From assembly GCA_964016885.1 (NCBI GenBank), contig OZ024753.1:30628001-30692000 (forward strand): 64,000 nt of DNA, in the 5' to 3' direction. Below the pieces are notes generated by a model. It was not told the origin of the DNA. It was given only the letters and a program-made list of their open reading frames with translations, and made no database searches. Positions 35,881 through 62,119 of the stretch are shown here, piece by piece. The DNA comes from Eledone cirrhosa. Lineage: Eukaryota. A program made the position numbers and the translations under genes. Every line of letters starts with the position of its first letter. The first letter of the stretch is position 1.

Positions 35881-36385
35881 TTGTTGTGAAAGAGTCATTT
35901 CTCAATCTTGGCGCAAAACCAATTTTTTATTCACATGACCTCTACCGACCAATCAAAATTGTTTTGACCACAAGAATTTTTGCTGGAGCCACTTTTTTAA
36001 TATAAAAACAGTCTTGGCGCAAAATCAATTTTTTACATTCACATGACCTCTACCGACCAATCAAAATTGTTTTGACCACAAGAATTTTTGCAAATTGGAG
36101 CCACTTTTTTAACATAAAAACAGGTAGAATTCCCAAAACTAATCAGATCAGAGCAAACAGCACGGACACTCTATCTCAAAATTATTTTTGAAAAGCATTT
36201 AGAAATGCGCAACCGGTAAAAACTTAAAAACTTAAAACCACAACTGAATACTAACCCATACAATCACTAATACTCTTTTATTCCTAATTAAACCATTTTT
36301 CAACTGTGAACAATTTGTCAGCATTTTCTATTCCGTTTACCAATATATAATAACTTGTGTGTTACACCTCTATTCTTTTAACTAT
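35325..36385 (+). repeat. 5' pseudo-LTR (direct repeat)
   Basis: Colinear with 40097-41264, including microsatellites and an internal ~105-bp tandem duplication (35905/36012). Confidence 0.92.
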
Positions 36386-36495
36386 CATATCCTCACACGA
36401 GATACAGAAAATGCCAACAAAAAACGGATACAACCCTCATCAACTCAAATGAAGAGATCCTACAGGAACTCAAGAAAATCAACACCAACCTATCT

Positions 36496-37722
36496 TTGCT
36501 GGTCGACAAACTTGATTCCACAAATAAGGAAACCGCCACCGGATACAAACCCTCCGAAATCGGCGACAAACTCCAAAACCTTTGCGATACTATCCAAACT
36601 ATGTTCACTACTACCAACCCAGGAAAAACCAACAAAGAACCATGTGAGATTGATTCACACAAAATGAAAATTCGAACAATTCCAAAATGGAACAAATCCC
36701 TCAGAGACAGAAAGTTCTCATTCTGGAAGATGATACAAAATCACAACAAAGCAGAGATATATGAAACATGGCTTAACTCAACCCCTCTAACTCTCCCCCG
36801 TAAACTACAAATAAAGTCCATTCCAAATGAACCCGAACCTCAAAGACACCTTAGGGAAAGAATGGCATTGGAAAAAATGAAGACAGAAATTGAACTTCTT
36901 AAACTGAGGGCCCAGACAAATGAAGAAAAAATCAAAACCATCGATGAAGAGATCCTCCTGGAAATCAACAACAAAACTGAAGGCCCCAAGGTAGAGAAGA
37001 TCTCCAAATTATGGAAAGGGGACTGCAACAGAGAAGAACTGAAATCCCTTCAACGCTGGGAAAAAAGTGCCGCTTGGTTCCTACACTATGAATCGACTTT
37101 TCAAACGGATTACACCTCCAATAACCCGTTCATAAAAATAGGAAAACCCATAACTGAACCGCACAACAACTTCTCAAACCCCCAAGCCTCTAACAAACGA
37201 AGAAGGAAGCACCACACCGAAGATGAACTTCCCAACCTCGCTACCATAAGAAGGAACAAAAACCCAAGAAATCATCTCCCCCAGAATGACATTTACAACT
37301 TTCCCCCTTCAAGGAGACACCATACCAAATCACTCAACTACTACGCGGATGCCTCATCGTCAAACATAGGGAAAAGATACCACCGCCATGATAGATGTAA
37401 CAACTTCCCCGCTTCAAGGGGACAGCAAGGTAATTACCATTTTCTCAACTCTCGCTTCCACAATACACAACAAACCCACACCACACGATACAACAAACAA
37501 CGTAGACCACTTATAACACCACAATACAACATGGCACATAGAAACACACACCCATACTCGCAGTACAGGAACACCCCATTCAATCTACAACCACCAACCC
37601 GAACCACATTTTACAACAACAAGGAATATAACAAACACAGGAGACCACTTAACATCAGCAGACAACCCCTCTACCCCAACCATTTTTTAGACACAGCACA
37701 CAGATACAGGCAAACAAAATAA
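36496..37722 (+). CDS. PLE ORF1: coiled-coil N-half, basic N/R/H-rich C-half; frame open from 36382, true start uncertain
   Basis: 408+ aa uninterrupted; heptad-like LRERMALEKMKTEIELLKLRAQTNEEKIKTIDEEILLEINNK; lies between the pLTR and the RT ORF. Confidence 0.7.
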   Translation: MLVDKLDSTNKETATGYKPSEIGDKLQNLCDTIQTMFTTTNPGKTNKEPCEIDSHKMKIRTIPKWNKSLRDRKFSFWKMIQNHNKAEIYETWLNSTPLTLPRKLQIKSIPNEPEPQRHLRERMALEKMKTEIELLKLRAQTNEEKIKTIDEEILLEINNKTEGPKVEKISKLWKGDCNREELKSLQRWEKSAAWFLHYESTFQTDYTSNNPFIKIGKPITEPHNNFSNPQASNKRRRKHHTEDELPNLATIRRNKNPRNHLPQNDIYNFPPSRRHHTKSLNYYADASSSNIGKRYHRHDRCNNFPASRGQQGNYHFLNSRFHNTQQTHTTRYNKQRRPLITPQYNMAHRNTHPYSQYRNTPFNLQPPTRTTFYNNKEYNKHRRPLNISRQPLYPNHFLDTAHRYRQTK

Positions 37723-40008
37723 CACAAGACAGGGAGGAGAAACCGATAGTAATAAAAATTATCAATCTTACTAGTGCAGAACCAACACCCAACCTTATCA
37801 ACTTACTCTCCAAAGGTCTTAAATTCACACCGACCCCACTACGTCCTAACTACTATGAAATGAAGGAAGACATCACAGACTTCTGTAGAAAGTTACGACT
37901 TAGTGAACAACTATTCGACCAGTACAATGAGGATGAATCATTAGCCAGAAATAGAAGCAATTACACCCCTTCAAAAGGTAGAAATAAAATCCTGGACGAA
38001 TTCTGTGAACACATCACAAACTTCCCTTACCAACACTTGCACAGACAAAAACACAAGCCAAACCTCAACAAGAAAGAATGGGAAGAATTAAATAGATTAA
38101 AAACCGACAGAACTATTACAATTAAAGAGGCTGATAAAGGGAGTACAGTAGTCCTAATGGAGACAGAATTCTATATCAACTTAGCGCTCTCCACTTTGGA
38201 AAACGAAACATACTACGAAAAGGCTGAACACTACAATCAACAGAAAATTATGAGAAACCTAAAAACTCTAATCAACCAATACAAAGAAGGACTCACTAAC
38301 AAGGAATTCAGCTTCATCACAGACTTCACAAGTAAATACAGCCTTTTCTACGGTATCCCTAAAGTACATAAAAGCGAATCAATAAGTAAGGCATGCAAGG
38401 AAGCCACAGACATAGTCATCAATGTCCCCTCACCCAATGATCTCAAATTAAGACCTATAATAGCAGGCCCCGCTTGCGAAACGCACCGTCTTAGCAACTT
38501 CATTGATACCCTTCTCAAACCCTTCCTCAAGCACATCAAAAGCTATATAAGGGACGACCTAGATATGCTCAATCACCTCCCTAATATGCCACTTTCTGAA
38601 CAAACCCTACTAGTGACGTTCGATGTAGTCAACCTATACTCCAACATCCCCCACAACCTAGGAATAGAAGCTATCCAATTCTGGCTGGATAATTTCCACA
38701 ATGAACTCCCACAACGCATCAAAAAAGAATTCGTGATAGAGGGACTCAAATTTATCTTGGAGAACAATTACTTCGTTTTCAATAACAAACCCTACAGGCA
38801 GAAATCTGGGACCGCTATGGGAATGAAAACAGCCCCCCACTTATGCCAACCTAGTCATGGGATACCTGGAAATCACCCTCTACACTAAAGTCCTAAACAA
38901 ATTTGGAAACACCCTCCACTTACACATTGAAAGGAACTGGAAGCGATATCTAGATGACTGCTTCATCCTTTGGCACGAAAACATCGAAAAACTTAAAGAA
39001 TTTCACACCCTTATAAATGGGCTCAACACAAATATTAACTTCACGATGAAATACAGCCATCAACAACTCCCCTTCCTCGACATCCTCATTAAGATCCATA
39101 ACAAAAAAATAGAAACAGACATATACTACAAGCCCACAGACTCCAAGCAATATCTCCCCTTCAACTCTTGCCACCCTAGACACGTTAAAATTAATATTCC
39201 CTACAACTTAGCCAAGAGAATCTGTACTATAGTCTCCAATAAAAACATCTGCTACTTACGGCTACAAGAACTAAAGGACACACTCATAGGCAGGGACTAC
39301 CCTGCATCACTAATTGACAATGGAATCCAACGTGCCCTAAAACTCAGTACCCAGGACCTTAGACACCCTAAAGTAAATCAACCAAAACTAAAAGCTCTTC
39401 CATACATCTCCACACACAACCCCCTCAACAACGAGGCCTTTGACACCATCCTCCAGAACATCCCTGTATTGAAAAAGGACCATAGAATGAACCAAATTCT
39501 ACGAACACACGATATCATAAAGAGCAAAAGACAATCCAAGTCAATGAAAAACATCTTAACACATGCCAAAGTACTGCCAACCACAACAACGAAACCCACA
39601 GTAAAAAAATGCGATAGACCCAACTGTGGCATTTGCATCAACCTAATAGAGGGTTCGGAATTCTATTTCAAAGATGGACAACGTTTTATAGTAAAACACA
39701 ATTTCACATGTGCATCGGAAAATCTAATATATGTATTAACTTGTTCAGGTTGTCGAGAATAATACATAGGCCAGACCAAAAACAGCCTCCGCCAACGCAT
39801 GACTGTCCATAGATCCCAAATCAAAATACGGGAATACAGGAAAATACCACTGAGTGAACACATTGATACCTGTGCCGCACAAAATCATTCCAACTTCAGA
39901 ATCTTTCCCCTCTACAAATTTAAAGATAATGCCACCCACACCCAGCGCATCAGCAAGGAATCTTACTTCATTAACAAATACGGACCCCGTCTAAACACTT
40001 CTCCATAA
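37653..40008 (+). pseudogene. PLE reverse transcriptase plus GIY-YIG endonuclease, with one frameshift (~38833-38838) and one premature stop (39760-39762)
   Basis: IINLTS...LLSKGLKFTPTP, ADKG, FYGIPKVHK, LRPIIA, FDVVNLYSNIP, GTAMG, WKRYLDD, PFLDI, CDRPNCGIC linker, LIYVLTCSGCRE*YIGQT..LRQRMTVH, EH, ESYFINK. Confidence 0.95.
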
Positions 40009-49752: not shown

Positions 49753-50083
49753 TAAAAGTTGTTTTACAGATAGTGACATATTCAAAACAAGAAATTATCG
49801 TTTTCAGTTCCGAAACTTAAAACGATAAGTTCTTGTTTTGAATATATATATATAGAAAGAGAGAGTCTGCGGTGCTGAGACCTGGGATACCACTAATCAT
49901 GGGAGTATTCAATGCATGGGGAGATGCGGAATGGGTATAGAGATATATAAAATTCCGACAGCTGCTTAAAACGGGTTCGATTTCTGCGAACACACACAAA
50001 CAAGCCGAAAGCGCTTGGCGCCACGGTCAGGATTTTACATGTCTCTCTCTTTTTCTTTCTCTCTCACTCTATATATAAAATAA

Positions 50084-50585
50084 TAATAATGAAATCATTG
50101 TGTACAGTGCTCAGGTGCACTACAACTCATCAAAGGTGCATGTATAGTACATAGAATAATGTACAAATGTCAGGAAAATGAACAGTGTATGAGTCATGAT
50201 ATAATAACAATAACAATAATGAAATATTGTGTACAGTGCTCAGGTGCACTACAACTCATCAAAGGTGCATGTATAGTACATAGAATAATGTACAAATGTC
50301 AGGAAAATGAACAGTGTATGAGTCATGATATAATAACAATAACAATAATGAAATATTGTGTACAGTGCTCAGGTGCACTACAACTCATCAAAGGTGCATG
50401 TATAGTACATAGAATAATGTACAAATGTCAGGAAAATGAACAGTGTATGAGTCATGATATAATAACAATAATGAAATATTGTGTACAGTGCCCAGGTGCA
50501 CCACAACTCATCAAAAAAGTGCATGTACAGTACATAGGGCAATGCACAAACATCAGTAAAATGAACAGTGCACGAGTCATGATAC
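50084..50585. repeat. 129/129/123-bp tandem repeat forming the LINE 3' UTR
   Basis: TGTACAGTGC unit starts at 50101, 50230, 50359 and 50482. Confidence 0.95.
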
Positions 50586-53381
50586 ACACATGTGTGCATG
50601 TGTATGGAAGGGGTACATCAGGTGTAGTTTTGGCGTATTTCGGGAAGCATGAGTCTTAAAGGATGCAGTGTCTCGGCAGCTAACAATTGACGCAGGCAGT
50701 TTGTTCCATGCTTCAGCAACTCTGAGCGTGAAAAAATGTCTGCGAAAGTCATGGGAGCTGTGCTGTTTTCTTATCTTGTAGGCATGTCCACGTGTGTTAG
50801 ACACATGGAGATCAAAGAGGCGCTCAGGGTTGCAGTTGGCGAGATGGTTAAAAACTTTGTGGGTATTCACCAAGTCCATTGCCAGACGTCGGAGCTTCAA
50901 TGAATCCATGCCCAGGGAAGCAAGGCGTTCAGAGTATGGTAGGTGTCTGATGGAGGGTATGTGCTTGGTTGCACGTCTCTGAACAGTTTCCAGGAGGTCA
51001 ATGTTCCGAGCAAGATAGGGGTTCCAGACTGATGATGCGAATTCCAAGTGTGGTCGCACCATAGCTGTATACAGTTTTAAATAGATGGCTGGAGAGCGGC
51101 TAACAAAGGTCTTGCTGAGGGATGCCAAGACACCCTCGGCCTTCTTGACAATCTTAGAGACATGCTTTGTCCAACGCAAATCGTTGCTGACAGTAATGCC
51201 CAGGTCACGTTCACAAGAGGACTTTTTGATGTCAGTGTTGTGGAGGGAGTATGTGGACGCTGGATTTTTCCTTCCAAAATGCATGGTGGTACACTTGTCC
51301 ACAGCCAGCTTCAGTTGCCAGTCTGTGATCCATTGCTGCATTGTGTCCCGGTTTGATTGTAGGAAAGAGTTGTAAATTTCAGGATCGGTCCTTTTGATTT
51401 CAAGGTACAGCTTGATGTCATCTGCATATTTTAGTACCGTGGCATTCTGTAAGTTGGCATCTATGTCATTAATATATGCCACAAACAAAAGAGGACCAAG
51501 AACAGATCCCTGTGGTACACCAGATGACATCTCATATGGTGAAGAATGCTGTCCTAGAACCGTGACTACTTCCTTTCGGCTGAGAATGAAGGATTTCAGC
51601 CAGTCGAAAAGATCATCCCTCACACCCATTGCAGAGAGTTTTGCCATAAGTCTCTTGTGTGGCACAGAATTAAAAGCCTTAGCAAAGTCAAGGTAAACAA
51701 CATCCACCCATGAGCCGCTGTCAGTGATCCGGGTGATGTCCTCAAGGAACTCGATAAGCTGATCACAGCAGCTGGAGTTAGGGATAAATCCAAACTGTGA
51801 GGGCCGGATGAGGCTGTGAGAGCTCCAGAAGTTCCAAAGTGTTTCTCTGACACAGGATTCCATCAGTTTGGCCATACAGCTAGTAAGACTGACTGGACGA
51901 TAGTTGACAGGTGACATGCGGTTGCCCTTTTTGAACAGGGGAATGACACTGGCAGTTTTCCACTGCTCCGGAGTAGCACCATTGCTGAGACAGTATTGAA
52001 AGAAAAAAGAAAGCTGGCGCAAAAGGAAATCCCCGCCACGTTTGAGAAGCAGGTATGTCACACCATCAAGACCAGGGGAGGCATAGTTGCGCTTATTCTT
52101 AAGGTGACGTCGCAACATTGCAGGTGTAAATTCCATAGTTGTTATGGAATTTGATGTTAGAGATGGTGGAGATGGTACATTCTGGTTTTCAACAGTAAAA
52201 ATACTTGCATAGCACTCAGCAATGAGTTCTGCGCATTCCTTGGGATCATCAGTGATCTGGCTTGTGTGGGGATTGCGAAGAGGACCAACTGGAGAGTGAG
52301 GTCTCTGCTTTGAATGAACATATTTCCAGAACACCTTACTGTCAGGATTGGTTGCGATGCACTGTTCAAATTCAAGCACTGCCTTCTTTGTCACTTGCTT
52401 GAGATGGTTAGAAGATTTATTCCGCTTTTTTCTGTTGGCATCTGATCTATGCAGTTTATATTCCCGTTCAGCGTTCCGACGTTCTTTCCTGGCAAGTCGG
52501 ACCGCTGAAGTTTCCCAGATTGCACTTTTGGGGTGGTTATTTTTCCGCTTCCGTGGCACTGATGCTGCACACGCTATCCATATTGAGTCCAGGATGCTCT
52601 GGAGTATAGAGTTCACATCTCCAGAGTTATACATCTCATGCCAGTTTGGGCGCTGTAGCTCAGTGCAGTACAAGTTCCAATCCGTCCTCTTCCAATCAAA
52701 GCAAGCAGATTGGGGATGGCTCTGGTTTTTGTTGCTGCCCGCAAGAGCCAGATTGGCAATGATCATAGCATGATCAGAGTCGCCTAGAGGTTCCTCAGTA
52801 GTACAACTGATAACCACTTCAGGAGTAGTGGTGAAGATCAGGTCCAAAGTGTTGTCACCTCTTGTTGGAGAGGTGACTACTTGTGACCAGTTTGAGTCCA
52901 GCACTAGTTCAAGGAAATCGTTTGCACTTTGTGGCCAACGAAAGGTTTCCCAATCGATCTCAGGATGATTGAAGTCACCTGCAATAAACACATAAGTGGC
53001 TGTTTTCTTGGCAGCAACTCTGAGGATATCGCAAAGCTGTGTGTCCTGATGGTAGTTTGGGGGGCGATAAACAACACCAAGCAGAAGTGTTGACATGGTC
53101 ATACGTATGTCACAGAAAAAAACTTCTTCCTGTGATTCGTTCAAATCAACGCAAGGAATTACTGAAAAGTTTGAATGAACGTAGACCATCACACCACCAC
53201 CACGGCGGTTAATGCGGTCCTTGCGGAAAAGGTTGTACCCAGTAATGGTGAAAACCCCATCACAGAGTAAGGAATGTGCCCATGTTTCCGTGACTGTGAT
53301 GAAGTCAGGGTCGATGCTTCTGACGTAGGATTCGAACAGGTGTATCTTGTTGCATAAACTGCGAGCATTTAAGGACAACAA
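50577..53381 (-). CDS. CR1-type ORF2: AP endonuclease plus reverse transcriptase (934 aa, uninterrupted)
   Basis: LNARSL, VTETW, RGGGV, YRPP, GDFN, LDLIF, SDH; SPGLDG, NYRPVSLTS, QFGF, YLDFAKAF, GVPQGSVLGPLLF, YADD, ERDLG, RPHLEFA..VW.P, TRGH, FFTLRV..WNKLP. No ATG at the domain start. Confidence 0.95.
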   Translation of the reverse strand: MLSLNARSLCNKIHLFESYVRSIDPDFITVTETWAHSLLCDGVFTITGYNLFRKDRINRRGGGVMVYVHSNFSVIPCVDLNESQEEVFFCDIRMTMSTLLLGVVYRPPNYHQDTQLCDILRVAAKKTATYVFIAGDFNHPEIDWETFRWPQSANDFLELVLDSNWSQVVTSPTRGDNTLDLIFTTTPEVVISCTTEEPLGDSDHAMIIANLALAGSNKNQSHPQSACFDWKRTDWNLYCTELQRPNWHEMYNSGDVNSILQSILDSIWIACAASVPRKRKNNHPKSAIWETSAVRLARKERRNAEREYKLHRSDANRKKRNKSSNHLKQVTKKAVLEFEQCIATNPDSKVFWKYVHSKQRPHSPVGPLRNPHTSQITDDPKECAELIAECYASIFTVENQNVPSPPSLTSNSITTMEFTPAMLRRHLKNKRNYASPGLDGVTYLLLKRGGDFLLRQLSFFFQYCLSNGATPEQWKTASVIPLFKKGNRMSPVNYRPVSLTSCMAKLMESCVRETLWNFWSSHSLIRPSQFGFIPNSSCCDQLIEFLEDITRITDSGSWVDVVYLDFAKAFNSVPHKRLMAKLSAMGVRDDLFDWLKSFILSRKEVVTVLGQHSSPYEMSSGVPQGSVLGPLLFVAYINDIDANLQNATVLKYADDIKLYLEIKRTDPEIYNSFLQSNRDTMQQWITDWQLKLAVDKCTTMHFGRKNPASTYSLHNTDIKKSSCERDLGITVSNDLRWTKHVSKIVKKAEGVLASLSKTFVSRSPAIYLKLYTAMVRPHLEFASSVWNPYLARNIDLLETVQRRATKHIPSIRHLPYSERLASLGMDSLKLRRLAMDLVNTHKVFNHLANCNPERLFDLHVSNTRGHAYKIRKQHSSHDFRRHFFTLRVAEAWNKLPASIVSCRDTASFKTHASRNTPKLHLMYPFHTHAHMCVS

Positions 53382-53437
53382 TTTGTACCCTGCTCGCAGT
53401 TTATGATGGTGTGTAGAGGGTGGCAGGTTGTTCTGGT

Positions 53438-54028
53438 TTAGTTTCCCAGAGTTGTAGCAGTTTTTACATTGCTAGTTATTGTGGGTAGATCACACTCAGA
53501 CCAGCTGGTATCTCTCTTCCACGTTTCACCAGCCTTGACAAACCTCCAGATCTGCCCATCATCACGCAGACTGAAACTTTCATCTTGTGCTGAGTTCCGA
53601 TTCAAGGAAGCTGCAGCACTTAGTTTTGGACGTACATGGGGTGGTAGGCCTGGGCGTGTTCGGAAGGTAATCCGATTTTCACGCCCAGCTTTAGCAGAGG
53701 CCAGATGATATGAGGTTGCCTCTGCGGGGTCCGAGAAAGACAGCCTGATGAGTCTGGGTTTTGGACCAGGTCGACCAAGGCGGAGGGCACCCTTTGGGGG
53801 AACACAGCCTAGGTCTTTGGCTGAGCTGGCAGCAAATGCCTGAAGATCAGCCTTGTCCTCTGGTACCCCAATGGCAATCACTTCATGGGTAGCAGATTCC
53901 GCAGTCTTTTCAGCAAGAGGTACAGGGAGATTCTTTAGCAAGGCATTCCGATAAGACCCCTCATTGTGGGGTTCTACCCGAATGCTTGCCTCTATTCCTG
54001 CAACTTCCCTTCTCAGAGCAGAAATCAT
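53438..54028 (-). CDS. CR1-type ORF1 (partial)
   Basis: IAIGVPE...LRLGRPGPKPRLIRLSF resembles the CR1/L2 ORF1 RRM-like region; ends 57 nt before the ORF2 TTG. The track's extension to 54211 runs into another repeat. Confidence 0.7.
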   Translation of the reverse strand: MISALRREVAGIEASIRVEPHNEGSYRNALLKNLPVPLAEKTAESATHEVIAIGVPEDKADLQAFAASSAKDLGCVPPKGALRLGRPGPKPRLIRLSFSDPAEATSYHLASAKAGRENRITFRTRPGLPPHVRPKLSAAASLNRNSAQDESFSLRDDGQIWRFVKAGETWKRDTSWSECDLPTITSNVKTATTLGN

Positions 54029-55269
54029 TAGTTGATATAAGATATATGCTCTAAATAGTCGGGACCCCAACGGCTGAGCTCTTGCCGTTTCAACAACTAG
54101 TTCCAGACTCCTTAAACTAACAATTGTTTTTTTTTCTCCGAAACGGAAGGGCAGGACTGTCAGAATGTTAATGTTTTCAACGAATCTGACCTCCGGCTCA
54201 CCCGCAATCAACTTTTTCCTTCGAAAACAGAAGGGAGGGATGGAGAGGAGTTGGAACTTCCGAGTTAGGATTAAGCACTCCTCTACTATTTAATGAGAAA
54301 TTTTTTCCCCTGTATTTTTTCGTGTTTTCAGTGAATCTGACTTAAAATCGTTGGAAATTATTCGTTTTTTAGTTAACCATGCCTCTCAGCAGATGTTGGA
54401 AGGCTGGGGAGGGGTAAAATTAAAGTAGTAGTGGAAATGAAAACATTAAAAATGCTTTAGGGGTCAGATGCAGTGTGTAGTAGAGGAGGTGGCTGTGGTA
54501 TAGACATGTGATGTTTAAAGTGGATGGCAGCTGTATAAAAAGATGGAGGGTGCTCAAAATTGATGGAAACTATGGAAGAGGAAGATCTAGGAAAGCTTGG
54601 AATGGAGTGATAAAGGCTGACCTTTAATTAAATTTTTTAAAGGAGATGACACAGAATTGAGATCTCTGGTGTTATGCTGTACTGCAGTGAGAGCACGGGG
54701 AGGAGATATTGGTTACATCTCATAGAGGGTTTTTTTAAATGATAAAAACTATCGTGTTACTACAACTCACACCAATGTAGGTTTAGCTGACCTTGTATGA
54801 GATTGCATCTTATAGATTTCTAGGGGTTTTTTTAAATGATAGGTGTTCTATCATGAAATGAAACATCTATTCCAGTCCAGGAACTGTAAACCTTATGATA
54901 GTGAGTATAACAACCTAACCACCTTATGATAGTGAGTATAACAACCTAACCACCAGACATCACTAATGAGGGCAATATAGAGGTTGTTACAAGGATCTGA
55001 TATAATCTATTCTTAACAACTATTTAACTACATACATGGAGTGCCAACAGGATATAAGAAGGCTGAGAGGAATGGAATTTTATTTTTGTATGAAAGTGTG
55101 TGTTTGGCTCATGATCGTGTTTGTGAGTTCTATTCCTGGAGTGTTGGGTCCTTGAATATTAGCTACCGAAAGTAAGTTGTACCTGTAAATTCAAAGAGCC
55201 AACCTTGTCAAACACTGTCTTGCTGAATCTCCCTAAGAACTACATTAAGGGTACACATGTCTGTCGAAT

Positions 55270-55650: not shown

Positions 55651-55894
55651 AAGTGTTTTTCATTAGAAATATAATAACGAAAGGTTTTAATTATTTATGT
55701 TCATCTAAAAAGCCTTCCACCATAATTCTATGTAAGAAACTTTAAGTTATGTTGCAGACATCGGCTTAATAACGAGAACATTAGTTCTATTGCTAAATCT
55801 CTCCAAATTAAAAATAAAAATAATTGAAAACCGTAGGCAATGTATTTGTAACACTTCTATAAATATACGAGCCAGTCAAAGAGAGAGATTAGCA

Positions 55895-56847
55895 GCGTGT
55901 ATCCTATCTATATGAATGCGCTCAGGCGCTCACAGTCCTCTGGCAAGCGGGCGCAGCAATCAGTGGAGACTCCACTTCGACATTCTATAGAGGGATTGTA
56001 CGTTACAAGGGCGACGACGTGCTCGGAGAGACTCTGGGCGTCGAAGACCAGTCTGTTTGGTAGGACTTTCCGCCCGGAACCTATGGACAACTTCCAGAGG
56101 TCCCTGGCCTGGCAGTGCTACCGAGGAGCTCTACCGGTTCGTGACAAGATCTACAGGCACGGACGCCCCGGCAGGGATCCTTCCAAGAGGACGTGTCCAA
56201 GATGCGCGCAGGACATTGAAACAGTTCTGCACGCAATTGTACACTGCCCGGGCGTAACCGACCTGTGGAACTATGCAGAACAACTGCTGTCGCGTATGGG
56301 ACAAATCCAGTTGACTGCCGAGTCCATAGTAAGGATCAAACCGCCAGCCTCTTTCAAAATCCAAAGAGAGGCGGTTTTCCTCTGTACGGTGGTTATGGTG
56401 AAAGAAGTTATATGGTGGACGAGGTTGAGAGGACTGAGGACAGATGCCTTTCTCTCCGGACAACAATTGATTTTCTTCTTTAAGTATCACTTTAGAAGAA
56501 GAATCAGGGTGGAGAGAGAGGCACTGCACCCCAGTAAATTTACTGAAAGGTGGGTGAATGAAGCGAAAATGGCCCGAGTGATTGGGCCTTCTCTGTTTAT
56601 AAGCCTGTAGGTTGAGGAAGAGAGCGAAAGGAAGAAAGGGGCACTTGCACAACACGCTCCTGGAGTTGAGGGCTGTTCTATCGACGGGGTATTAAACAAC
56701 CCATTTGTGGCGCCTCACCCTTATTGGGGATTTCGATTGTTGTAATTGTTTGTTTTTATATTTTTTACACGACTGTATGTAAAATCCCCGGCATGTCTTT
56801 GTATTGTCCCCTTTTCTTGTGCGCCCTTGTGGCTAATAAAGAAATAT
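55895..56847 (+). mobile_element. 5'-truncated L1/Tx1-like LINE: ORF2 C-terminal zf-RVT/CCHC region (55897-56610) and 3' UTR
   Basis: LAWQCYRGALPV...CPRCAQDIETVLHAIVHCP...LW; AATAAA at ~56835. Confidence 0.8.
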
Positions 56848-58267: not shown

Positions 58268-59821
58268 ATCATCATCATCATCATCATCATCAACGTTTAA
58301 CGTCCGTGTTCCACGCTTGCATGGGTTTGGACGGGGGTAGTCCCACTTGAGGCAAGAGTGATTGTCTTGCTGGCATAGGACTGTCTGGCAGGTTTTCTAC
58401 AGTTGGATGCGCTTCCTAACACCAACCACATTTACAGTGTGGGTCTGGGAGGTTTTTACTGTGTTGCCTACACGGCCACATTACAGCGTGGACTGTGTGT
58501 TTTTTTGTCGTGACACCTACACGATCTCATTTGTTTCGGCCTGGATGGCGCGGCACCAACATAACTTTACATAGAACGGGGTGGTGTGGATGGGGTGGGG
58601 GTGGTGGCGGGACGGGGTGTATTTTGTTAGAGATGCCTACTGGCAAGGCGGGTCTTCTCTGTTACTGAGTACCGCCAAAGGTCTCGGTTCAGTGACATTG
58701 TCTTGGAGAGGTGTAAGTGTGTGAGGTCGGAGTTTATCAGCTCGTCCCAGGTTTTTCTAGGTCTGCCTATTCCGTGGCTACCATCTATCTTTATTGCCCT
58801 GCACTTTGTTATACAGCTATCGACTTTCATGCGCATCACGTGTCCATACCAACGTAGCCTTCTCTCGAGTAAACAACATCTGATCCCTCTTATCTCTAAT
58901 TTTTTCCTTAGTTCGTTTATGCTTTGCCGTTCACGTATATTACTGTTACACATCCAGTGGAGCATGCAAGCTTCGTACCTCTCTAGTCTGCGTATATCCT
59001 CTGCACACAATACCCAGGTCTCACTGCCATGCAACATTGCTGTTCGTATGCAGGCATCGTACAACCTGCCTTTCATTTTTAGGGAGAACCCTTTAGCAGC
59101 TAATAGTGGTATAAGCTCTCTGAACTTTTTCCAACCAGTTCTGACTCTAGCTACAGTACTTTCAGAGCACCCTCCCCCACTGCTGATTTTATCGCCCAGG
59201 TAACGGAAGCTGTCCACTATTTCTATAGAACCCTCTGCGCAATTGAAAGAGCTAGTATTTTGTGGGCACTTGCTGCTACTTATTGCACCAGAACACCGGC
59301 CACATGTAAAATCTATGTTCTTAGTTAGCTTACCTGTGATCCCACTACATCTTTTATGCACCCATACTTTGCATTTAGGACATAAAATGGAGTTTCTACC
59401 TACGCCTTTCCTACACACCGAGCACGACCATTTCCCAGAAGGGACTGCCGCCTTGTTTTCTTTCCTACAAACTAGTACTTTGGTCTTAGCCAGGTTAATT
59501 TTAAGTCCTTTTGACTCTAGGCCGTGCTTCCATGTTTGGAATTTCTTCTCTAGCTCGGCCATTGATTCCGCTATGAGTGTCAGGTCGTCTGCGTATAGGA
59601 GTTTCCATGGGCAGCCTGTCTTGAACTCCTCTGTTATAGCCTGAAGGGCAATAATAAATAGTAGGGGGCTGAGAACAGAGCCCTGATGGACGCCAACTTT
59701 TACGCTAAACTCTTCACTATATTCGTTGTTAATTCTAACCTTGCTGACTGTTTCTTTATACATGGCTTGTATAGCCCTCACAAGCCATTCGTCAACGCCT
59801 AGTTTTCTAAGAGCCCACCAG

Positions 59822-59822
<1 letters not shown>
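58268..59822 (-). mobile_element. 5'-truncated RTE LINE (open RT 3' part 58627-59820 with PHD-like insert; 3' UTR; (GAT)n tail)
   Basis: GVHQGSVLSPLLF, LLYADD, GLKINLAKTKV, FRYLG, HGSETW, RLRWYGHVMR, GRPRKTW. Confidence 0.93.
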
Positions 59823-59854
<32 letters not shown>

Positions 59855-59890
59855 TAGTATGTGTATATACATAAATATGTATATATAAAA

Positions 59891-60986
59891 GATGTAGTGG
59901 GATCACAGGTAAGCTAACTAAGAATATAGATTCTATATGTGGCCGGTGCTCTGGTGCAATATGTAGCAGCAAGTGCACACAGAATACTAGCTCATTCCAT
60001 TGAACAGAGGGTTCTATAGAAATAGTGGACAGCTACCGTTACCTGGGTGACAAAATCAGCAGTGGGGGAGGGTGCTCTGAAAGTACAGTAGCTAGAGTCA
60101 GAACTGGATGGAAAATGTTCAGAGAGCTTATACCACTTGGGTTCAGAGAAAATGTTCAGAGAGCTTATACCGCTAAAGGGTTCTCTCTAAAAATGAAAGG
60201 CAGGCTGTATGATGCCTGCATACGAACAGCAATATTTCATGGCAGTGAGACCTGGGCATTGTGTGCAGAGGATATTCGCAGACTGGAGAGGAACGAAGCT
60301 TGCATGCTCCGCTGGATGTGTAATAGTAATATACGTGAACGGCAAAGCATAAACGTACTAAGGGAAAAATTAGAAATAAGAGGGATCAGATGTTGTTTAC
60401 TCGAGAGAAGACTACGTTGGTATGGTCACGTGATGTGCATGAAAGACGACAGCTGTATAAAAAAGTGCAGGGCAATAAAAATAGACGGTAGCCACGGAGT
60501 CGGCAGACCCAGAAAAACCTGGGACGACTTGCTAAATTCCGACCTCACACACTTACACCTCTCCAAGACAATGTCACTGGACCGAGATCTTTGGCGCTAC
60601 ACAGTTATACAGAAGACCTGCCTTACCTAAGTACAAAGCGAAATCTACAGTCAGTAGGTACCTCTAACAAAATACACCCCCATCCACACCACCCCCTTAA
60701 ATGTGAAGTTATGTTGGTACCACAACATCCAGTCCGAAACAAATGAGGTCGTGTAGGTGTCACGACAAAAAAAACACAGTCCACGCTGTAATGTGGCCGT
60801 GTAGGTAACACGGTAAAAACCTCCCAGTACACACTATAAACGTGGTTGGTGTTAGGAAGGGCATCCAGCCGTAGAAAACCCGCCAGACAGTCCTGAGCAA
60901 GACAACCACTCTTGCCTCAAGTGGGACAATTCCCGTCCAGACCCATGCTAGCGAGGAAAATGGACGTTAAACGATGATGATGATGA
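59891..60986 (+). mobile_element. Second, shorter and more damaged RTE copy in opposite orientation
   Basis: ORF 60025-60630 homologous to the 58627-59781 product; has its own 3' UTR and (GAT)n tail. Confidence 0.92.
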
Positions 60987-62119
60987 TATGAATGTATATG
61001 TTAGCAATGAAAGTGCATGGCTTAGTGTTTAGGGGGCTGGGCTTACAATCATGAAGTCGTACTTTCAATTCCGGGCTGGGTGGCACATTGTGTCCTTGAG
61101 CAAGACACTTTGTTTCACTTTATATTCAGGTTAAGGCCACATCCTATGCGGCGCTGCTCGACAAAGGTTGCCCATGCTTGTGTTAAATGAGGAGGTGGAG
61201 GATTCACTTATTCACAAGGCATTGATTGGACTGGGGTTATAGTAAAAGTAGCTTAGCCAGAATGTCATGCCATTGCCTAACAATGACAAAAAGAAAAAAA
61301 CCTATCATATTTGTAGCATTACCAATGAGGGTATATTAACCCTTTCATGGCCATATTTTTAATAAGAAACATTGCCTATAATTTTCAAGAATTTAAAGGT
61401 CTAGTTCTAGTTGGATTGTTGTCCCTTTTAATACAGACTGTTCCTGGTTCTACTGTACAAAATGGTTTATTTTAAAGTGTTTGTTTATCTAAAAACCTCT
61501 CACCATAATTTTATCTAAACTTTTGTTGTTATATTCCAAACACAAGTTTAATAATGAGAAAATTAATTGTATTTTTAAGTCTCTCCAAATTCTCAATTAT
61601 TTTCAAAATTATTAAAAAATTATAAGCAGTCTTTCATCAGAAATATGGTAACAGATGGGTTACTTATAATAATTATTTAACTTTGAACATTTTTTAACAG
61701 ACATAGTAATTTTCCATTCTCATCTTCCTGCTGTTAATAAGTACATTTTCTCACTAAAACCAGTATTTCATCAATATATACTTATTGAACCATTTTTCTT
61801 TATTCTCCATAAATAATCAAACCTAATTATTTATTTAACTAGCCATTGTTATAGTTGTTTCAGTTTTTTTGTTTCTTCCTCTGCACAATATTGATTTGAT
61901 GTGTAAAGTGAATTCATGTGAAATCACCTCACCATGATTTTACTTCAAATTATTTTAATTCAATTGGATTAATCTTATGCAACATATTACTGATATGCTA
62001 AATGCTGTAACATATCTGTTCTACTTCATCGCTACCATCGATTTTTACGTTCACTTTTCTATGCTGGCATGGGTTGTACAGGTCTTTTTATTCTTTTTGG
62101 TTGCATTGTTTCCATGGCA

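Follow-up and report, generated by a model that had tools for sequence, protein, structure and literature searches.

A probable programmed -1 ribosomal frameshift at the ORF1/ORF2 junction of a CR1-type LINE in Eledone cirrhosa

A stretch of 64,000 nucleotides (nt) of Eledone cirrhosa DNA (assembly GCA_964016885.1, contig OZ024753.1, positions 30,628,001 to 30,692,000; hereafter the window, with positions counted from its first letter) carries on its minus strand a 5′-truncated long interspersed nuclear element (LINE) of CR1 type. A programmed -1 ribosomal frameshift at the junction of its two open reading frames (ORFs) is the probable source of a fusion of ORF1 with the APE endonuclease and reverse transcriptase (RT) of ORF2, and the probability of this reading is put at roughly 0.8. 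At the heptamer G_GGA_AAC, the tRNAs on GGA and AAC would re-pair one base back; most ribosomes would terminate at TAA, the next codon, and a fraction would read on in the -1 frame into APE and RT to give an ORF1-endonuclease-reverse-transcriptase fusion. Slow termination at the adjoining stop is the preferred helper in the window lineage. That a signal of this kind persists in distant relatives makes it likely that ribosomes slip back here; the slip, the fusion product and an excess of ORF1 over ORF2 (a low ORF2:ORF1 ratio) are inferred from comparison of the sequences.

A preliminary description of this DNA had proposed such a frameshift aided by a downstream stem, and its account of the junction holds. 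ORF1 ends CTG GGA AAC TAA on the minus strand, with an in-frame heptamer at 53447-53441 of the X_XXY_YYZ form that defines -1 programmed ribosomal frameshift sites. ORF2 lies in the -1 frame, runs without a stop from 53471 to 50577 (964 codons) and overlaps ORF1 by 34 nt. It is open from the heptamer and lacks a usable AUG: as had been claimed, no ATG precedes the middle of the APE domain, the first in this frame (53189) standing inside the endonuclease, 3′ of the TETW motif and of the Asn of motif I (codon 53369-53367). Elsewhere in the element, 6 of 1109 codons carry a canonical heptamer in frame, and at this rate—the element's own—a heptamer would fall by chance in the last position before the stop in about 0.5% of cases and anywhere in the overlap in about 6%; the single copy is therefore only suggestive.

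The element likely belongs to the CR1 clade. ORF1 proteins of CR1 elements are of RRM or esterase type, and features of the clade include 5′ truncation and a short tandem repeat closing the 3′ end; the window copy has both an (ATT)n tail and a truncated ORF1. Pfam matches of ORF2 are to APE and RT only, with no RNase H among them. ORF1 has no Pfam match; its structural model (pLDDT 85.5 with a 51-row alignment, 58-65 over the last 20 residues) finds its best fold matches in human LINE-1 ORF1p (E 8.5e-6), and the predicted fold, resembling the RRM and C-terminal domain of that protein, points to a separate ORF1 of the RRM type. Matches of ORF2 include named bird and turtle proteins, which we take to be of CR1 type, and a quick APE-only tree without an outgroup places the window with L002, P0003 and P0008. 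The named relatives of ORF1 come from Octopus vulgaris and show 52-78% identity, which makes an octopus the likely host. ORF1 relatives measure about 400 amino acids, and that of the window aligns to residues 206-405 of one of them (P0123), the first ~205 residues being missing; the copy is truncated near 54035, the ATG at 54028 encodes a Met from within the protein, and the copy is therefore not autonomous. No target-site duplication longer than 7 nt was found at the window LINE. The 129-nt units at its 3′ end stand head to tail, each with an ATT-rich end, and possibly reflect repeated priming at insertion.

Searching 1.84 billion representatives with ORF1, without a length limit, returned 58 matches, none of them an ORF1-ORF2 fusion (0/58). 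With the window protein and two additions from the search that gave the named relatives these make 61 proteins, and removal of the 9 that lack the last conserved motif leaves 52 tails. Gly-Asn (GN) occurs in 40 of the 52 and GN or Lys-Asn (KN) in 46, as against means of 6.7 (maximum 17) and 10.2 (maximum 24) in 10,000 shuffles of the tails; the three closest relatives with a full ORF1 tail likewise end in GN. Slippery sites of the sequence G_GGA_AAC and A_AAA_AAC would leave just these dipeptides, GN and KN, in the protein. At none of the 41 GN sites is the preceding residue one whose codons are unable to end in G, such residues making up 18% of the tails (nominal p 3e-4, kinship ignored).

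It is quite improbable that Gly-Asn is simply a protein motif, with an incidental overlap and an ORF2 made otherwise, from a spliced or shorter RNA or by internal entry. Such an explanation draws on the fact that most ORF1 members of the family are known as protein only, and that the view of RNA is limited to the contigs of one run guessed to be RNA (X14). However, the dipeptide floats within a tail modelled at low confidence, 3-36 residues past the last conserved Trp; it is often followed by further residues, a stop coming directly after it at 8 of the 41 sites (the window included), and it is replaceable by KN. Synonymous positions are, moreover, fixed where DNA exists, and no joint is listed in X14, which is a weak point since it concerns contigs only.

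One locus of the window's own family, L002 (60% APE identity), was obtained as DNA. It reads CAG GGA AAC TAG at 1286-1295—the same heptamer followed by a stop—and its -1 frame is open to the motif-I Asn, 68 nt on compared with 71 nt in the window, through intervening DNA that has diverged. The preliminary description had made its case depend on relatives not lacking the heptamer and the -1 overlap; L002 keeps both the heptamer and the frame offset. P0135 and P0008, whose records each hold 3 contigs with a longest of 4299 nt, are likely from one element: their sequences are compatible over 15 codons, solely in the -1 frame, and this forces A_AAA_AAY followed by a stop. The next best compatible run is 8 codons, the window's own pair set aside. 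Conservation at the nucleotide level beyond the needs of the protein is thus found in L002, in the GN/KN tails and in the codons of the distant lineages described below. An ORF1-based locus scan with a 14-row alignment gave no useful locus among 6 viral and 16 metagenome candidates, the 51-row alignment being too diverse, and an APE-based scan, run on viral contigs, yielded 0 of 36. A weak 26-residue bacterial match to ORF1 (L001) was treated as chance.

Contigs of four sequencing runs, one per organism, were placed on 53150-53700; one run (X10) has no coverage of the junction, and 40 of the 109 variants are listed. Among the variants listed in the three covering runs the heptamer is unchanged, one run having changes at the flanking positions 53448 and 53437. 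A single X14 contig crosses the junction with 11 differences, 10 of them within 53420-53492 and none of these in the heptamer or the stop. Three indels are listed near the junction, all of 3 nt and frame-preserving, among them an insertion in the spacer at 53410 (X13). These data bear on the idea that the native element has one long ORF and that a one-base indel in a dead copy mimics a frameshift site. The copy is indeed 5′-truncated, and copy-specific frameshifts do occur in relatives (L002 ORF1 near 1080, L037 and L042); no frame-changing indel is listed in the three covering runs, however, the offset of L002 is identical, and both the GN ends of the three closest full-tail relatives and the lack of any fusion among the 58 matches speak against it. 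This explanation is largely refuted and very improbable.

The wider evidence comes from an APE-based metagenome scan, which yielded 80 loci, the best of 369 confirmed; 78 of these and the window have an APE start, giving 79 junctions. All were re-read individually, automatic ORF1 assignment having misplaced loci with a broken ORF1, L002 included. A motif of amino acids only, defined after the junction DNA had been viewed and sought across 600 nt in each of the three frames, occurs once in each of 54 of the 79. The -1 frame holds ORF2 in 52 of these 54, while the remaining two have lost 1 nt. The motif's Asn codon is AAC in 44/44 cases (background 0.39) and its Glu codon GAA in 36/36 (background 0.55), with adjacent Tyr and Phe codons varying freely. 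The base before the slip codon equals the first base of that codon in 53 of 54 loci (12.7 expected), the two switching together among G, A and T. Taking a single locus from each 70% cluster gives AAC 30/30, GAA 24/24 and matching base 36/37. Until two codons before the heptamer, 9% of -1-frame codons are stops, after which there are 0 in 1223 codons (37 loci); synonymous resampling of the ORF1 codons predicts 91 +/- 8 (minimum 66), and the upstream control has 117 observed against 120. Only 8 of the 52 loci have an ORF2-frame ATG at least 4 codons before the motif-I Asn. The other 25 junctions comprise the window and L002, 14 loci in which inspection by eye finds A_AAA_AAC (in one case C_AAA_AAC), U_UUA_AAC or U_UUU_UUA elsewhere in the overlap, and 9 discussed below.

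Several loci carry further features at this point. An exact GTGGTAGG lies +13 to +20 past the heptamer in 24 of 37 representative loci (L003-L081) and may be a linear frameshift stimulator, a dual-coding outcome or a splice-donor-like site. That distance is associated with linear, factor-bound stimulators in the accessible part of PMC5009743; a long-range pairing partner of GTGGTAGG was found in none of the 24 loci. TCG GGG GA(C/A) is invariant in L005, L013, L016, L019, L060, L064, L075, L078 and L081, where relatives carry canonical heptamers, and such G_GGG_GA(C/A) sites possibly slip in the P site only. L010, L027, L043, L054, L055, L070 and L071 have A_AAA_AAC 174-177 nt 5′ of the ORF1 stop, so that ribosomes shifting at this point would exchange the final ~59 residues of ORF1 for others. 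In L056 (~1184-1192), ORF1 and ORF2 share a frame with a single TGA, then CAA, between them, making this locus a candidate for stop readthrough.

Reinitiation offers another route to ORF2. Ribosomes would stop at TAA and restart at a non-AUG codon, the best being CTG 53426, with the stem 18 nt on slowing scanning as proposed for mammalian L1 ORF2. CTG 53426 has an A at -3 and is 14 nt away from the first base of the stop codon, and another CTG stands at 53399; the stem is very stable, the region around it looks conserved in X14, and AUG-independent initiation is deemed likelier for mammalian LINE ORF2 in the available portion of PMC5009743. This route nevertheless leaves unexplained the conserved heptamer, its co-varying first base and the disappearance of -1-frame stops already upstream of where ORF1 ends. 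In L002 a near-cognate start is lacking at 5 or more codons before the motif-I Asn; such a start is missing from 28 of the 54 loci when counting begins 30 nt before the stop, and from 14 of the 54 when the whole open frame is taken. CTG reinitiation is, on balance, improbable. The fallback of the preliminary description is reinitiation at TTG. TTG 53381 and 53378 lie just 3-4 codons before the motif-I Asn, and this placement, together with L002 and the 14 of 54 loci without a near-cognate start, makes it unlikely. Within the window copy, CTG 53426 is the better candidate of the two.

Two other forms of restart were considered. In L1-type reinitiation a short spacer separates the ORFs, which do not overlap, and a start lies ahead of the endonuclease; here there is a 34-nt overlap and no ATG, the CTG start remaining a candidate. 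Stop-start coupling at a UAAUG-like junction, established for SART1 according to the accessible text of PMC2699510, which cites Kojima 2005, has next to no chance of applying. A TAAATG does occur at 53371-53366, but the TAA at 53371 is not the ORF1 stop and the ATG at 53368 is in the ORF1 frame rather than that of ORF2; the frames rule this coupling out, there being no overlapping or adjacent stop and in-frame AUG.

For the stem, the preliminary description was right about the structure: the arms at 53405-53391 and 53367-53353 are exactly complementary over 15 bp. Compared with shuffled sequence, the stem region gives z -4.5 over 141 nt and z -7.2 over 101 nt, and in neither case does any of 200 shuffles reach its stability. 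In X14 there is at most one change in the 79 nt holding the stem compared with 10 in 103 aligned nt upstream (p about 0.015, in a comparison that mixes linker with coding DNA), so that the stem region looks conserved in this one relative; the stem is probably selected in close relatives. The doubt already voiced about its distance is, however, borne out. The stem begins at +36, outside the stimulator distance, and the spacer itself folds no better than shuffles (z -0.8 and -0.1), only 5-bp helices beginning within its first 30 nt. Frameshift stimulators are placed at spacers of 3 to about 15 nt in the accessible part of PMC5009743, and because 35 nt separate heptamer and stem here, the stem is not assigned as stimulator. 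A role as a classical, direct stimulator is unlikely, and aiding CUG initiation is about as unlikely; an indirect role, for instance through ribosome queuing one footprint past the usual spacing, is a tentative possibility, and an unrelated RNA function comes somewhat short of an even chance. The frameshift proposed at the outset finds strong support in the comparative data, and the part given to the stem does not, its distance being wrong and the stem being absent from L002.

Several observations weigh against a -1 frameshift and are set out together. In the window, no RNA structure lies 5-9 nt past the heptamer, nor up to about 15 nt (pseudoknots were checked as short helices). The 15-bp stem is absent from L002, the nearest relative with DNA, which has a different hairpin from +1 (at the stop) with a G-C core at +15 (z -3.0, 2 of 200 shuffles). 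No stem covariation was seen, the listed variants including none in the stem. Nor do the distant relatives have a general local fold (mean z -0.02, with 4 of 39 below -2) or a shared downstream hairpin. The window copy contains two ORF2-frame CTG codons. Among the GN sites, the residue that follows starts with G in 26 of 41, so that AAT-G could give a +1-frame ATG in members known only as protein. As for the distant loci, the 54 with the motif belong to other CR1 lineages (~30-40% APE identity) with a different ORF1 end, and most of their sites are imperfect: 36 are G_GAA_AAN, which is among the listed types of variant, and another 9 are G_GGG_GA(C/A), whose A-site match is poor. The loci are related to one another (30 clusters at 60% across all 79), the motif was written with the junction DNA in view, and in 9 of the 79 junctions no candidate site was found by eye.

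Bird CR1 elements give a more distant comparison. ORF1 proteins ending in Leu-Asn (LN) make up 54 of the 120 bird CR1-type proteins listed (466 found). Of three bird ORF2-frame proteins, two fit an LN-ending ORF1 in the -1 frame for 15 and 18 codons, which requires U_UUA_AAY and a stop, with a best fit of 4-5 codons in the +1 frame; the third, P0217, has no long compatible run, which counts against the frameshift reading. Bird and turtle elements share ~27-32% ORF2 identity and C-terminal motifs with the window element, and the ORF1 ends of bird CR1 likewise imply a slippery site, a stop and a -1-frame ORF2. In contrast to the window element, bird and turtle CR1 have an esterase-type ORF1 and a distance of ~100 residues, offering Met codons, from the site to motif I of APE. 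The accessible text of PMC11835228 describes simply two ORFs.

Among known systems, the Dictyostelium elements TRE5-A and TRE3-A depend on a -1 frameshift to translate ORF2, as given in the available part of PMC5911963, and the idea is therefore not new for APE-type LINEs. Like the window element they have two ORFs, with APE and RT in ORF2; unlike it, they come from amoebae, belong to another lineage, possess a zinc finger and target tRNA genes. Frameshifting of the viral and retroviral type uses X_XXY_YYZ heptamers of the form seen in the window, but the LINE differs in having no structure at 5-9 nt and no long terminal repeats, protease or integrase. Mammalian L1 is also a LINE with a bicistronic RNA, and its ORF1p is matched by the predicted fold of the window ORF1; its ORFs, however, are free of overlap, and the accessible parts of PMC5009743 and PMC1965478 favour an unconventional initiation that does not depend on AUG. 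Junction mechanisms have been proposed for two further sets of non-LTR elements, neither of them a -1 heptamer shift: Bombyx SART1 reinitiates at an overlapping AUG (PMC2699510, available text), and for Paramecium groups a +1 shift, reinitiation or readthrough is suggested (PMC5405496, available text).

A literature search, with older and most subscription papers outside its reach, found no paper on a -1 frameshift in CR1. Papers of the 1990s that described CR1-type elements of chicken, turtle and mosquito may already suggest a frameshift. The accessible text of PMC9115989, PMC11835228, PMC13405545, PMC5405496, PMC2699510, PMC1965478 and PMC5006619 contains no such proposal for CR1, and that of PMC5009743 does not discuss CR1.

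Other repeats lie elsewhere in the window. A palindrome family with long, perfect arms of 32-38 bp, similar to miniature inverted-repeat transposable elements, occurs at 1868-1937, 16043-16158 (full) and ~54060-54110. On the plus strand, 36382-39762 is a broken retroelement with three overlapping frames, a weak RT match and a Cys/His-rich end, by eye presumably Penelope-like, and a weak zf-RVT match at 55852-56610 is likely a further retroelement fragment. Two inverted pieces of another LINE, 87% identical, span 58275-60991; the minus-strand frame 58627-59913 encodes RT and a PHD-like finger and appears by eye to be of RTE type. Coordinates of the LINE and its flank are collected in Table 1.

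Table 1. Parts of the CR1-type LINE copy and its 5′ flank, in window coordinates
Feature	Position	Strand	Basis or remark
3′ part of ORF1 (RRM, C-terminal domain and low-confidence tail ending Gly-Asn)	53438..54034	-	Predicted fold
Slippery heptamer G_GGA_AAC	53441..53447	-	ORF1 frame, last two ORF1 codons and one base; read from sequence
ORF1 stop TAA, adjoining the heptamer	53438..53440	-	Read from sequence
35-nt A/C-rich spacer, without a stable fold of its own	53406..53440	-	Contains ORF2-frame CTG 53426-53424
Stem, 5′ arm	53391..53405	-	Exact complement of 3′ arm
Stem, 3′ arm, encoding part of APE motif I (N-A-R-S-L-C)	53353..53367	-	Exact complement of 5′ arm
First ATG of the ORF2 frame	53187..53189	-	60 codons past the motif-I Asn; read from sequence
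ORF2 (APE endonuclease and RT), if entered at the heptamer	50577..53447	-	Pfam PF03372, PF14529, PF00078
Element 3′ end, about four tandem 129-nt units, then a short (ATT)n tail at ~50090-50077	50070..50584	-	Sequence repeats
Decayed half of the palindromic repeat, flanking the LINE 5′ truncation, outside the LINE	54060..54110	-	Matches 16056-16145

How ORF2 of LINEs is translated is a long-standing question that is commonly answered by reinitiation. CR1 elements are widespread in animals. In the chicken genome they are the dominant repeat, at 11.8% (PMC11835228, accessible text). It is an even bet whether -1 frameshifting is the general and ancestral route to ORF2 in CR1-clade LINEs, from invertebrates, cephalopods included, to birds, producing a Gag-Pol-like fusion from a slip site that has moved between ORF1 types. 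It would operate without a classical pseudoknot, driven by the adjacent stop, a linear GUGGUAGG at +13 or a stem one ribosome length downstream. The junction offers a seven-base target that a reporter could test directly, together with candidate stimulators that fall outside the standard pseudoknot model. If frameshifting does occur, the CR1 enzyme would be a fusion with ORF1 and annotated ORF2 starts would be wrong; engineered CR1 assays would require an intact junction, and host factors acting on frameshifting could control CR1.

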